From NCBI GenBank assembly GCA_038087875.1, contig CM075990.1, positions 1,552,001-1,616,000 of the forward strand: DNA of 64,000 bases. Direction: 5' to 3'. The stretch is from Malacoraja senta (Eukaryota). Below, one piece after another: positions 6,506 to 25,941 of the stretch; within the stretch, counting starts at the first letter, position 1; the number at the start of each line of letters is the position of its first letter. Made by a program: the position numbers and the translations under genes. Below the pieces are notes generated by a model. That model searched no databases. It worked only from the letters and a program-made list of their open reading frames with translations, and was not told the DNA's origin.

Positions 6506-7198
6506 TGCAAGTGAAATGAACTTGCCAGCAGCGGTATAATAAAAAAAACACACACAATGCACAATAAAAAATGTACACAAACATTCATCACTGTGGTGGA
6601 AGGCACAGAAATTGGCCAGTCCTCCTCCATTTCCCCCCGTGGTCGGGACCTCACACTCCGCAGTCGCCGCTGCGGGCGTCCAGATGTTCAGACACGGTAA
6701 GTCCAGGCAGGTCCTGAATCGGAGACCGCGGCTTCAAGTTGGTGTAGGCCGCAGGCCGGCGGTCGAAGTGCTAAAGTCCCCTCCGCGCCGCAGCAAGAAG
6801 CACCGGAGACTGCAGGGCCGACGGTCGGAGCTCCTCTCCAGGGATCCCAGGCGAGGGACCCCGCTTCGGATGGTAAGTCCCCGCCGCGCCCGCGGTAGAA
6901 GTATGCCGCGGGTCGGCGGTCGGAGCTCTTCTCCTCCCATGACCCCAAAGAGGGATCCCAGGCTCCAGACGCCGCGCAGGCTGCCGGGGGCCAACGAAGG
7001 GAGCGCTCCCCTCTGGCGACCCCCGGCGAGGGCTCGCCCGCTCCGCGACGAAAGCGTCCTCGCTGCGCCCGCTGCTGAAGCCCCGGGCACATCTCCGGGA
7101 AAGGCCTCACCAATCCTCGATGCTAGGCCACGGGGGAGGTGACATGGAAAAAGTCGCCTCTCCGTGGAGGAGGCGACCGAAACGGTTCCCCCCCTTAG

Positions 7199-7229
<31 letters not shown>

Positions 7230-7358
7230 ACCAACCACCACGCAAGACACACAGAGATACATTAAAAACACACATTAAGACACTAAAAAAACAAAAAAAG
7301 TAGAAAAACTAACACGCTACTGGCAGGGCTGCATGCTCGCAACAGACCAATGGATATT
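6506..7358 (-). mobile_element. Non-coding GC-rich retroelement-like insertion (copy A)
   Basis: Absent from the paralogous site at about 37430-37436. Has a T/G-rich 5' tract, GGCCTAGCATC and GCCTTCCACCACAGTG motifs, and a Rex/Babar-like 3' portion. Confidence 0.65.
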
Positions 7359-7566
7359 ATGCAGCAGAGAATATTATGAATTAATTGGTCGACGGCGGAG
7401 CATAACGGGGACCATGGTGTCACCTACGGATTCTCCAATAAAACTCATAAAATGATGCAATGAGGCGAAACTTTGTTGAAATAGGAATTTCCCCGAATGA
7501 AAGGAAATATGCGTTGTGCACGCGTGTGAACGGACGGTATTTTCTCAAAAGTATCCATTGATAGAA

Positions 7567-7624
7567 TAGCACAGGATGGTTTCGATCCCTCGACCTCTGC
7601 ACGCTTCCGCTGCGCCACTCAGCT
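7567..7624 (-). pseudogene. tRNA-iMet pseudogene, anticodon arm deleted
   Basis: Aligns to 37646-37717 with a 14-nt deletion (GGTTATGGGCCCAG on the + strand) and 3 substitutions. The flanks are paralogous. Confidence 0.92.
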
Positions 7625-22359: not shown

Positions 22360-22969
22360 AATAGAGAGATTAAACGAGAATTTACCAGTTTGAAGTTTGA
22401 TCTTTATTTTATGAGAAGTTGCGATGAGGGATTACGTGAAGAAGCCCGCCAGACCGCATGCGCGTGAATCTTCAAAGTAGCTGTATGAACCCACAGAATA
22501 GTTGCTGACCTAAACTTATAGCGAGATTAAAGACTCGAACTACCGAATGATCTTTATGAGAGTAGGGTTGGGAGTGGAGGGCACGCAACTTCGCATAAAA
22601 TAAAGATCAAACTTCAAACTGGTAAGTTCTCGTTTAATCTCTCTAGTTTATTTCGAAGTCACGTGAGTGACTACGTGAAGATTTCTAAGCTCTGTGGTTT
22701 CATACTGTGACAATCTGTGTGTGAAAACACTAAAACAGATAAACCATTAATGGCAGGAAAACATGAGGTATTGACATCACGATGCTAACTTGCATACATG
22801 GCCATTGCTCTAAACTGGCCTGTAGTCCCAATAGACTGTTGAGTTAGACAATAACTTATGCAACAAGTGTTAAAGAAGGAACTGGTGACGCTGGAAAATC
22901 GAAGGTACACAAAAATGCTGGAGAAACTCAGCGGGTGCAGCAGCATCTATGGAGCGAAGGAAATAGCCA

Positions 22970-22997
22970 ACGTTTCGGGCCGAAACCCTTCTTCAGA
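22970..22997 (-). ncRNA. Minimal hammerhead ribozyme motif in a Penelope pseudo-LTR
   Basis: CTGAAGA-A-GGGT-TTCG-GCCC-GAAAC-GTT, with a UUCG-capped stem II and an AACGTT palindrome. Confidence 0.55.
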
Positions 22998-24988
22998 CTG
23001 ATGCAACAATGCAACTTATGCAACAATGTGCATAATTCTATCTGGTAACATCCAGACATATTCCACTAAATTTATAATTTATTAAACTGCATTATGTAAC
23101 CTCATGCTGTGTGATGAAAAGGAAACCATTCTATTGGCTGCTAATGAGCCATCAGCAATATCTTTAGAGTATTGAAAGAAAAAAACTATCATTCATATCA
23201 TAGGCACTAGCAACTCAGTGCACTTGTATGCCTAATGGCATCCCTGATCTCATGTGGTGGGTATGCTGTCAACCTCAAATGCACACAATCCTGCTCATTT
23301 GCTTATGAGATTATTTCTGTAACAAGCTACCCTAATGTCAGTATGACGTGGGGACTAAGCCAGAGATTGAGCAAGGATGTGTTCTTGATGCTGAGATCAG
23401 CTGCCGAAAGCATAATTATCTTAAGATACTGGTCCCATTAGGAAAAATTTGGAGGCATATTTGCATAACAATTTATAACTGATATGCATCGCACATTACA
23501 ATGAGTGTGGGCTATTAGAGTGGTTAATGAAAGACACCCTGCATAACGTTGTAGAATAGTGGGTGAAGAACTAATCATTTCTGTCCTACTTATGGTATTA
23601 CCGAAATGATAAAGCAGCACAAGCAATGTCAATTGTGCTGTCCCATAAAGTTTCTCTAGGTTCAAACTGGAAGCCACACAAACCTCTGTTACTTCCGTAT
23701 AGAATTGACTCACATATGTTGTTCACAAGCTTCTCATACAATCGTGAAGAGCTAGCTGGACGAGAAGACAGGCTGTCCCATCCGTCACATGTGAAAGAGT
23801 AAATAAGAGTTGCTTCAGCCGTCTACCATGGCGTGACTGAATAAGCAAACTGATACTGTTAAATTTCATGTTGCCTTAAATGTAATATAGCCAAAATATC
23901 TACTGACAACGCATAAGATATATCTTTTGCAATTTTGCATAATATCCAAACTCGGAGACATAATACCATTAATCTGAGAAGGGCAGCATAGGCTTTCACC
24001 ATTACTTTGTTATAAAACAGCAGAAACTAAATGCAACTACAAGATTGATTCTCTGAGTTAGTTAAATTGCAGACACCCAATCATCCATCTTAAACTGGGT
24101 AAGTGAACCCACAATTTGATTAACCTAATGCTAACCCAATTAGGCCTGCACCATATTTCTGTAAACTCGAGAAAGTACCCCTCTAGTCCTTGGTCAGACC
24201 ACACATCCTTGGATGAGTTGTCGCTGAATGTACTTGGAACCGTTGATCCTCCGTAGATCCTACGGACGGAATTTTGTGGGCACCCCCACCCGCGGAAGAT
24301 GCATATCTAGCTATTCATACATATCGCTGATAGTATATAATCAGCAGCTAATGACTAGAGCTGAACCACAGTTTCCCTTAGATGTGAGAAACTAGTTGCC
24401 TGTCAACTCTTGACTAAGAGCCACGATGAATACGTAGGGTTTCCCTTCAGAGTGGAGATCGGTATAAGGCAAAGCTGAATCAAGTATCACCTCGCAGACC
24501 TTTGACTGCGACCACATGTCTAAACCTCCAGAGTGCATAACACAATCTGTTCGACGCACCACTCAATCAGGAATACTGGTATTGAGAGCCTATGGTTTAT
24601 TATGAATACATTGTTGATTCACAACATGAACCTGCAGGTCTGATAAAGTTCTGATATATGCCAGACGAGCTTCCTGCTGGTTACTACCTGTCCCAGAGAA
24701 AATGGCAATGACGATCAGTCTGATGACCTCTCATAGATGATGAAGCAGTGCTTCTCTGGTCACTATGACTCGTATAGCCAGCCAGTTTCACGATGGTCTA
24801 CCCTGATCCAGGGTAACCAAACTGTTCCTACTTGGAACTTACAGAGGTTACTGTGTAAGGCACTTTGCCAATGTCTCTACATCAAACTGATCTTATCCCA
24901 GAGACAGTAAAACGACTAGACAACCCGTGCTGGTCGACAAGCTGCTCCATTTTGGAGTTTACGAAGGTTAATAATGAGACCTTCAATG

Positions 24989-25941
24989 GAGGAGCCGCCA
25001 TCTTGGAGGAACGGCTGCTAAACAGCAGCTGTCCATCAAATTCACTCTTTCTTTTGTGTTAGTGTTTTTTATTTCTTTGTTTGTTTGGGGGGTTTTGACT
25101 TTTAATGTGGTGGGGTAAGGGGGTAACTATTTCTAGGTCCCTACCTGGTCGGTGAGGCAGCTTTTTCTCCAGGCTGCCTCGTCGACCCGTCCTCGTGGCC
25201 TACCAGCGGGCATGGAGCGCCGTTTCCTGACGGGGACCGCCCAGCATCTTCAGCTTCGGTGGCGGCACAGCGCTGGAGCGCTATCGGAGAGCGTAGCGGG
25301 CGATGCCTTGCCTGGGTCGCCGCGCTGGATCGACACGCTGGAGCTGACCGCCGACACCAACACCTCCGGGCTGCGGGACTGCGGAGCGACCAGCTGCGGG
25401 CGGCGGCGCCGACTCCAACATCGGGAGCCTCGTGGCTCCAAATCGGCGCGGCCCTGTCGGCTTCAGGTGCCATCGACTCCGTCGGGAAACCGGACGTTCC
25501 AGCCGCTCCGAGGACTCTCCCGACGGCCAGGAACATCGGGCCTCCGTAGAGGCAACTGTGGTGGCCTCGATGGGCCTGACTCTGGGGAGAACTGGGTTGG
25601 GGACTGGACATTGTGCCTTCCCCCACAGTGGTGGTGATTGTGTGGGGATGACTTTGTGTGCTGTGCCTGTCAGTCCGTGTACAAGATGGCGGTCGGAGGG
25701 GAGAGTGGACGCTGGCGCGAATTGGTCGCCGCTGCTCTCTCCTCAAATTGTGTTTCTTATTTTCTTTTGGTGCTCTTGAAATTGAATTCTGTCCTTGATT
25801 TGTGTACTGTGGTGTTTTTATATTTAATTTATTCCGATTATGTGTTTTGTATTTTTTTTTGTGATTCTATGCATTGTAAGGTGTCCTTGGGTTTTAGAAA
25901 GGCGCCAGTAAATAAAATGATTATTATTATTATTATTATTA
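24989..25941 (+). mobile_element. Non-coding GC-rich retroelement-like insertion with an L2-like tail (copy C)
   Basis: GCCGCCATCTTGG head, T/G-rich tract, GGCCTACCAGC (25197) and GCCTTCCCCCACAGTG (25615). The 3' end is tgtaaggtgtccttggg..aaaggcgcc..AATAAA..(ATT)n. Confidence 0.7.

Follow-up and report, generated by a model that had tools for sequence, protein, structure and literature searches.

Primate SVA and LAVA elements are composite, GC-rich, non-coding passengers of LINEs and are of the Pol II type. Bipartite LINEs without ORFs, among them RIME, NARTc, Bov-A, RTESINE and the Vingi derivatives, are non-coding as well and consist of a LINE-type head and tail with presumed Pol II transcription; the available text of the 2018 paper describing them lists RTE, Ingi, Vingi and R2 as the only sources of bipartite derivatives (PMC5786205). 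The CORE, V, Deu, Meta and UCON3 superfamilies are described as having a common middle domain, differing 3' modules and Pol III heads of tRNA, 5S or 7SL type, and members of SINE superfamilies are known from fishes, sharks and rays among them (HE1, SacSINE1, CmiSINE), in the accessible parts of the reports (PMC7245038, PMC5499810, PMC3747384). The bird elements BuceSINE and ManaSINE2 lack a small-RNA head; they carry GC-rich sequence of unknown origin and a bipartite 3' part derived from a LINE, as given in the available text (PMC4844689). Tail exchange and bipartite modules are documented in the portions available of PMC5786205 and PMC7245038, and stem-loop recognition by the LINE machinery in that of PMC4176376.

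The window analysed here, which is the whole stretch of 64,000 nucleotides from Malacoraja senta, contains three elements, A, B and C, which are real, mutually related repeat elements of 0.7-0.95 kb with no coding content. With a probability of roughly 0.6, we consider them to be diverged members of one old non-coding, non-autonomous retroposon group with a Pol II head, copying borrowed from LINEs and a module gained in the C branch. An initial annotation had proposed a family of non-autonomous retroelements that shares a core and swaps its tails; the family and the core were retained, the swapping in part only.

Extent and relatedness of the elements

Element A (6506..7358, minus strand) is 853 nt long. 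Element B (16355..17070, minus strand, 716 nt) adjoins a G-rich repeat at its 3' end, and its boundaries are provisional. Element C (24988..25941, plus strand, 954 nt) belongs to a many-copy family found in four organisms; A and B are single copies within the window, and the multi-copy comparison covered C only. When the window was scanned with a profile of the three cores, no element beyond A, B and C was recovered, and a GC-rich pair (8636-9269 and 10794-11418) considered as further members was rejected as a different repeat. The bodies of A, B and C are CpG-rich, as annotated, with 63-68% GC and CpG observed/expected ratios of 0.90-0.92, versus 46% and 0.71 for the window. A T/G-rich tract follows a head of about 40 nt in A (7193..7318, minus strand) and lies at 25041..25119 (plus strand) in C; its length of about 125 (A), 95 (B) and 80 nt (C) replaces the 100-170 nt given initially.

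Three motifs are common to the elements, at the positions that the initial annotation had assigned. In a pattern scan of the whole window GGGG(G/T)AAC was found at 7185-7192 (A), 16930-16937 (B) and 25120-25127 (C), and also four times outside these sites, so the 8-mer is not specific. GGCCTA(G/A/C)CA is present as GGCCTAGCA in A (7121-7129, minus strand), as GGCCTAACA in B (16882-16890, minus strand, with a second copy at 16608-16616) and as GGCCTACCA in C (25197-25205, plus strand), and nowhere else in the window. Likewise confined to the elements is GCCTTCC(A/C)nCACAGTG, with window matches only at 6589-6604, 16465-16480 and 25615-25630 even when two mismatches are allowed; a three-way 16-mer with at most two variable columns appeared in 0 of 300 shuffled triples. 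The three elements had been said not to align overall, which the bodies contradict: nhmmer relates A to C (E=4e-7) and A to B (E=3e-4), and the local alignment scores are 115 for A/C and 79 for A/B versus 54 and 51 for the best of 100 shuffles, the B/C homology being marginal (44 versus 43). These alignments indicate that the GC/CpG-rich bodies of A, B and C share common ancestry.

Beyond the window, no viral contig matched any of three motif patterns. A metagenome scan gave at least 117 loci, which are read as chance because among those listed none matched the window past the 19-21 nt motif and the second motif was within 700 nt upstream in only 1 of 117. CACAGTG was also considered as a RAG signal and rejected by eye, there being no nonamer at 12 or 23 nt.

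The flanks of A are paralogous to another part of the window, 5531-6505 corresponding to 36504-37432 and 7359-7658 to 37437-37751. Since A is absent at the paralogous site (37433..37436), it is an insertion, as had been proposed; the filled site has lost the 4 bases of the empty one and has no target duplication. Zebrafish ZfL2-2 has been described with target sites that are blunt or truncated (PMC2666801, available text), and the site of A is consistent with these.

Contigs matched to C came from four organisms (7,941, 63, 24 and 5,744) and fell into several identity bands, the comparison leaving out the repeat at 25909-25950 and contig depth not being taken as copy number. Small shares of C in 20 further runs were left aside, and no RNA data set appeared among the listed carriers of C, which bears no information on expression. 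Another copy of C starts at 24988 and thus shares its 5' end (24 of the 515 rows with loose ends are listed). Element C and its 3' end at 25941 agree with the initial annotation, which had placed the start at 24989 and missed an inner second head at about 25682. Four listed contigs from three further organisms span the 16-mer and reach 36-39 nt into this inner head, and other contigs of the C family chain on as far as 25908. In the C body (25127-25593) all 7 indels among the rows listed (12 of 52) are of 1, 2 or 5 nt and shift the frame. C is a many-copy repeat without coding constraint, dispersed and non-coding as expected of a non-autonomous retroposon. None of seven element ORFs matched Pfam, which does identify RVT_1 in a resident LINE, and the APE/RT ORF of an autonomous Rex1 or L2 was found in none of A, B and C. 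No protein homologue was seen among 218 candidates (best Atlas score 0.78), and protein-coding readings of the elements were rejected on these results.

Heads, predicted stems and 3' ends

The many internal T runs of the elements count against transcription by Pol III, which terminates at runs of four or more T: sense-strand runs of this length number 7 in A, 7 in B and 11 in C. The absence of tRNA-type A/B boxes noted initially holds for spaced boxes, loose matches in the elements being scattered or abutting, and ARAGORN and Rfam gave no significant tRNA or Rfam family in A, B or C. Neither of the classical SINE traits, a small-RNA head with spaced A/B boxes and freedom from internal T4+ runs, was found. 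A sigma-70 promoter scan was set aside as not applicable to vertebrate DNA.

Between the heads no significant alignment was obtained for any pair of the three elements (65-437 of 500 shuffles). By eye, the B head (17031..17070, minus strand), with TGGCGGC-N8-GCAGCGG, resembles published Rex1 5' ends, and the Rex1-type head pattern occurs once in the window, at the 5' end of B. The outer head of C carries the 11-mer CCGCCATCTTG (24995..25005, plus strand), an inverted copy of 25682-25692 in the inner head. The latter (25682..25875, plus strand) has CAAGATGGCGG, a GC stretch and a T-rich tract and looks by eye like skate L2/Rex1 5' ends. In the accessible part of Table S2 of PMC13343379, AAGATGGCG stands at the start of 7 of the 24 consensus rows for skate L2 and Rex1, and TGGCGGC-N10-GCAGCGG is present in 5 of 19 Rex1 rows, both judged by eye; the head patterns were composed after the elements and the published rows had been viewed.

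The initial annotation had envisaged a structured motif, and in C a family-wide stem is predicted at the conserved 16-mer, which forms the 5' arm of 13 pairs (25615..25648, plus strand); the family majority letters at 25636 and 25643 convert both mismatches of the window copy to G-C pairs. The idea does not extend unchanged to the other two elements. In B the 16-mer lies in a 13-nt inverted repeat (16436..16480, minus strand; arms 16464-16476 and 16436-16448, one mismatch), and the stem is not the favoured fold. In A (6589..6604, minus strand) the CACAGTG half is predicted to pair with a different arm further downstream (pair probability of 0.96-0.99 when 75 nt are folded). A first hairpin is predicted in A (7152..7178, minus strand, followed by T5), homologous to that of C (25147..25187, plus strand, 15-nt arms).

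A and B were thought to end in different, Rex/Babar-like sequences. The last 90-110 nt of A can in fact be aligned with those of B (score 50, 0 of 300 shuffles), the T/G-rich 3' region of A (6506..6588, minus strand) being homologous to that of B and showing weak Rex1 likeness in its last 32 nt. Neither A nor B has AATAAA or a microsatellite at its end, and as they have no terminal repeat, which target-primed copying needs, both must be assumed truncated. For comparison of tails the window offers a 5'-truncated resident LINE (12790..15360, minus strand, RVT_1 E=5.6e-27), presumably of the Rex1 clade, and a second Rex1-type 3' fragment (44709..45790, plus strand). The A tail resembles their two 3' ends weakly (39 and 18 of 1000 shuffles, among six comparisons made), and the B tail not significantly (226 and 789 of 1000), so that the Rex-like label is kept, as a weak one, for A only. 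The terminal module of C (25876..25941, plus strand), with a predicted short stem-loop (z -0.3), AATAAA at 25911 and (ATT)n, is one that we take to be L2-like; the C end matched neither Rex1 3' end (612 and 427 of 1000), and the window has no L2. A loose Rex1-tail pattern matched at just three places, the A end, the B end and one of the Rex1 ends (against a mean of 0.42 in shuffles), but was not counted, because it had been written from those three ends and missed the second Rex1 end. A full-text literature search for a tail 9-mer returned unrelated papers only.

The three elements have the core in common and carry at least two different 3' modules. What remains of the proposed tail swapping is a distinction between two types of 3' end rather than three, one for A and B and the other for C, and exchange copy by copy was not seen within the C family; since the layout of that family is fixed across the organisms compared, any tail exchange happened once, between families.

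Origin of the group

If A, B and C are such a retroposon group, RNA polymerase II would transcribe the whole element, starting from an internal head of LINE type and the CpG-rich body; Pol II is favoured because Pol III would be stopped by the T runs. The RNA would then serve as template for target-primed reverse transcription, carried out by the ORF2 protein of a LINE of the stringent type that binds the 3' stem-loop. The A/B branch probably had a Rex1-type LINE as its partner, and the last bases may have been lost in both window copies. The C branch would have gained a 3' module of about 260 nt, composed of a LINE-type 5' head, a terminal stem-loop and (ATT)n; this module resembles a small bipartite LINE derivative and may have been added once, with a switch of partner, probably to L2. 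More tentatively, the elements could represent an undescribed superfamily of rays, made up of long Pol II-driven passengers with no small-RNA head and a conserved CpG-rich body and stem, including Rex1-mobilised elements, that passed from Rex1 to L2 by taking up an entire bipartite mini-LINE as its new tail.

It is unlikely, if still worth serious thought, that the elements are plain internal-deletion derivatives of Rex1/L2 lineages, with no independent core, so that the body is a long GC-rich 5' region with repeated subunits and the likeness is that of related LINE 5' UTRs, each with its own 3' end. The order of head and T/G tract mirrors Rex1/L2 5' ends, and A holds diverged internal repeats spaced at about 95-110 nt; in the available part of PMC13343379 some ORF1-less elements of the CR1 group have subunits of 100-500 bp near the 5' UTR, and one skate and one sawfish Rex1 row have repeated 5' subunits. 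However, in the same source the body is absent from the first 400 nt of 31 little-skate rows, 5 sawfish Rex1 rows and 8 stingray Rex1 rows, and exact searches over the first 400 nt of some 1,000 rows yielded 0 matches for GGCCTAACATC, 0 for GCCGCCATCTTG and 1, in a caecilian, for GGCCTACCA; these comparisons cover the first 400 nt of each row of a table that may not include the window's species. In intact rows, over that length, the T/G tract passes into coding-like sequence. A single deletion, moreover, would not yield the two heads of C. ACTTACC had been considered as a link to the Rex1 subunits and was dropped, since it matches 17 times in the window (3 times within A or B) and 50 times in the supplement text available.

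That the core is not a retroposon at all, but solo-LTR-like, DIRS-like or mobilised as DNA, with the LINE-like end of C added later and co-amplified, seems improbable. The missing terminal repeat of A and B, the lack of a target duplication at every copy (A, B and C) and the 11-nt inverted repeat between the C 5' end and 25682-25692 would agree with it. Yet terminal inverted or direct repeats were found in neither A nor B, and among LTR, MITE or DIRS-type marks neither terminal repeats nor target duplications were seen, the inverted pair of C not being terminal on its 3' side. That 11-mer is a common LINE 5' motif, its 9-nt core occurring 55 times in the supplement text available (PMC13343379). 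The AATAAA-(ATT)n end of C is linked to the body in several organisms, and the strand-biased T/G tracts resemble LINE heads and tails.

Very improbable are ordinary tRNA-derived SINEs with decayed or lost heads, for although SINE superfamilies typically combine a common body with exchanged tails (PMC7245038, in the part available) and the B head has A-like and B-like boxes (positions 12 and 23, one mismatch each), these boxes abut without a spacer, the three tRNA genes of the window all lie outside the elements, the head of C is complete because a second copy starts at the same base, and the first 100 nt contain T runs of 5-7 (A, B) and 4-6 (C).

Comparison with known systems

On the more tentative reading as a superfamily of rays, Rex1 and L2 would join the short list of LINE clades known to spawn ORF-less bipartite derivatives. 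The retroposon reading, if correct, would mean that a SINE-like superfamily does not need a Pol III head, since it can arise from a LINE-type promoter and CpG-rich core, and that it can change its LINE partner. This bears on the proposal that SINE bodies and tails are supplied by bipartite LINE derivatives and on why few LINE clades are known for them. A CpG-rich repeat of such abundance would have consequences in these genomes for repeat masking, for the calling of CpG islands and for spurious gene models; sites with and without an insertion are usable as phylogenetic markers.

A, B and C recall SVA/LAVA in being composite, GC-rich, non-coding LINE passengers of Pol II type, but differ from them in lacking a VNTR array, a retroviral part and poly(A), and their partner would be a stringent-type LINE. 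The last 260 nt of C have the same layout as the bipartite ORF-less LINEs in the available text of PMC5786205; here, in contrast, the likely sources are Rex1 and L2, head and tail are separated by a GC body of 480-600 nt, and no match to a parent LINE was obtained. Like the CORE, V, Deu, Meta and UCON3 superfamilies, the group combines a common middle part with differing 3' modules, and it is set apart from them, going by their descriptions, by greater length, by T runs that break the sequence and by heads in which no tRNA, 5S or 7SL origin was found. BuceSINE and ManaSINE2 depend on AviRTE and their GC head is short (PMC4844689, available text), whereas the GC-rich part of A, B and C sits inside the element, as a body preceded by a LINE-type head and a T/G tract. 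Rather than a new biochemical system, the group is a variation on the known themes of SINE superfamilies and bipartite LINEs.

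Body homology and the multicopy C family

Three related GC-rich elements, A (6506..7358, -), B (16355..17070, -) and C (24988..25941, +), lie in repeat-rich vertebrate DNA that contains LINE fragments, a DDE transposase, a 7TM gene and three tRNA genes; its repeat content suggests a cartilaginous fish, probably a ray or skate. The initial annotation held that they do not align overall; local alignment and nhmmer contradict this, and their bodies (GC 63–68%, CpG observed/expected about 0.9) are homologous. Alignment scores were 115 for A/C, 79 for A/B and 44 for B/C, versus best scores in 100 shuffles of 54, 51 and 43, respectively. 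With A as query, nhmmer found C (E=4.1e-7, spanning model positions 5–623) and B (E=2.8e-4); within the window, the B query gave no C match and the C query no B match. The first hairpin region is common to A and C and absent in B, and no alignment was found among the three heads. A motif search of the window bore out the positions claimed for two motifs, GGCCTA(G/A/C)CA (9-mer) and GCCTTCC(A/C)nCACAGTG (16-mer), which within the 64 kb are confined to A, B and C, the 9-mer being present in two copies in B. A three-way 16-mer of comparable quality arose in none of 300 shuffled triples.

Evidence from beyond the window consisted of one comparison with public contigs plus consensus sequences from the literature. 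The contig comparison took in C alone: region 24880–26050 was matched against contigs of four of 24 sequencing runs (X1, X3, X6 and X7), from four organisms and four studies, with X1 possibly sharing its source with the window and hence not independent. C is a multicopy, non-coding family. The four runs gave 7,941, 63, 24 and 5,744 matching contig records, spread over identity bands from 99% and above down to under 90%, and one X1 contig starts to match exactly at 24988, with a different flank. The seven indels of the C body that stood among the 12 rows listed, out of 52, all measured 1, 2 or 5 nt. At least four contigs (two of X3, one each of X6 and X7) span the 16-mer of C (25615–25630) and, among the matches listed, extend 36–39 nt into its inner head, a second head-like segment starting at 25682; further listed contigs chain on to 25908. 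Whole-length C in one piece was absent among the matches listed, as was a common departure directly after the 16-mer among 24 of 515 loose ends listed. The sequence just 3' of C (25951–26049) is itself repeated in X1 and X7. Pfam matched none of seven ORFs of the elements; one C ORF had no homologue among 218 candidates of 91–291 aa, and one A ORF had an Atlas score of at most 0.78.

Proposed transcription and copying, and insertion of A

Most likely (probability roughly 0.6), the elements are transcribed by Pol II and then copied by a LINE of the stringent type, which recognizes a 3' stem-loop. An internal head of LINE type and the CpG body would drive Pol II transcription; a presumed partner LINE would bind the stem-loop, as shown for zebrafish L2s (passages of PMC4176376), and copy the RNA, and insertion would proceed without target duplication, as described for ZfL2-2 (passages of PMC2666801).

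The heads were compared with Table S2 of PMC13343379, which gives the opening 400 nt for about 1,000 CR1-group consensuses; all 31 little-skate rows, five sawfish Rex1 rows and a subset of the stingray rows (22; 14 CR1 and 8 Rex1) were compared by eye. Among 24 L2 and Rex1 rows of skate, 7 open with AAGATGGCG; a GC stretch comes next and then, in most of them, a T/G-rich tract, a layout that C's inner head appears to share, by eye and after the fact. TGGCGGC-N10-GCAGCGG occurs in 5 of 19 skate Rex1 rows (by eye); B's start, the only such pattern match in the window, resembles it with N8, not N10, again by eye and after the fact. The body of the elements is absent from the first 400 nt of the skate, sawfish and stingray rows, exact motif searches of that 400-nt span in about 1,000 rows were near empty, and as far as the check went, no known LINE 5' region matched in a way that would speak against the initial annotation. 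That the elements are plain deletion derivatives of unseen LINEs is unlikely, albeit the likeliest of the rival readings.

The 16-mer of C forms the 5' arm of a predicted stem (z -2.45; pair probabilities 0.99). At 25636 and 25643, almost the entire depth of each of the four runs has the other letter, and by hand these majority letters turn both mismatches of the window copy into G-C pairs, for a predicted stem of 13 pairs, three of them G-U, with a 5-nt loop. At the 16-mer of B lies a 13-nt inverted repeat with one mismatch, but the favoured fold of B differs; in the predicted fold of A, the CACAGTG half pairs with another downstream arm. Body folding z-scores (30 shuffles each) were -5.7 for C, -2.5 for A and -1.3 for B. 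The predicted stem at the 16-mer is therefore good for C and plausible for the whole group.

The initial annotation described three different tails. The 3' regions of A and B are homologous (0/300 shuffles), and there are therefore two kinds of 3' end, A/B versus C. At the end of C stand a short predicted stem, AATAAA and (ATT)n, a tail that we take to be L2; A and B have neither AATAAA nor a terminal repeat and are thus either truncated or not tailed. Against two LINE 3' ends in the window, presumably of the Rex1 clade, the counts in 1000 shuffles were 39 and 18 for A's last 32 nt, 226 and 789 for B, and 612 and 427 for C; A's tail and one of these ends have a common 9-mer just before that end's terminal hairpin. 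In the C branch, a bipartite mini-LINE may have been taken up to serve as the new tail, the direction of exchange being presumed; such a route was proposed in passages of PMC5786205 and PMC7245038.

As initially annotated, A is an insertion: of the two copies of a local duplication, one contains it and the other lacks it, and at its site 4 bases were lost with no target duplication. A core of non-retroelement nature is improbable.

No small-RNA head was found in A, B or C by Rfam or ARAGORN, the sole Rfam row inside an element being a partial miRNA model (E=1.6). Their sense-strand T runs, which number 7, 7 and 11, would stop Pol III. Decayed tRNA SINEs are a very improbable source.

Neighboring features

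A tRNA-Met(CAT) gene forms part of the local duplication. It is intact at 37646–37717 (-); in the copy at 7560–7625 (-), about 200 nt upstream of A, a deletion of 14 nt runs through the anticodon arm. The first 9–11 bases of A (7348–7358, -) match, inverted, 37629–37639 / 7552–7560 (+), just 3' of the tRNA-Met gene and about 200 nt from A; these are possibly templated junction bases, although the match has an E of only 0.47. B lies about 530 nt downstream of a tRNA-Phe gene (15750–15822, +), so that, with A near the tRNA-Met copy, two of three elements are close to tRNA genes; a tRNA-Asp gene lies at 663–736 (-).

A GC-rich repeat pair (8636–9269 and 10794–11418; about 630 nt, 97% identical, with internal diverged repeats) was considered as a relative of A, B and C and proved unrelated by repeat and nhmmer comparison. 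A MITE-like repeat, about 370 nt in length and bounded by long terminal inverted repeats, has two copies, 82% alike, at 5150–5522 and 22352–22709. An open 368-aa DDE_Tnp_4 transposase (31621–32727, -; E=3e-34) has a weak Pfam MADF match nearby (29151–29636, +), a combination that we take to be that of PIF/Harbinger elements. An intronless 320-aa rhodopsin-family 7TM open frame occupies 42425–43387 (-; 7tm_1 E=1.7e-19). Decayed ORFs at 1045–4771 (+), presumably DIRS-like, gave no informative Pfam match for the two scanned.

Relation to known elements

The group formed by A, B and C is real. Such elements in rays were absent from the titles and abstract openings searched, which covered few subscription papers, from passages of PMC13343379 (including section 15 and the supplement), PMC6274825, PMC3747384 and bioRxiv 10.64898/2026.10.27.761883, and from the abstract of PMC5499810. 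The families may already be catalogued in Repbase/Dfam, and if so are probably listed as unclassified or LINE-labelled repeats. With SINE superfamilies the group shares exchanged tails and a similar way of working, but it differs from SINEs in its head and with respect to Pol III. Similar elements include bipartite non-autonomous LINEs and the bird SINEs with a GC head described in passages of PMC4844689.
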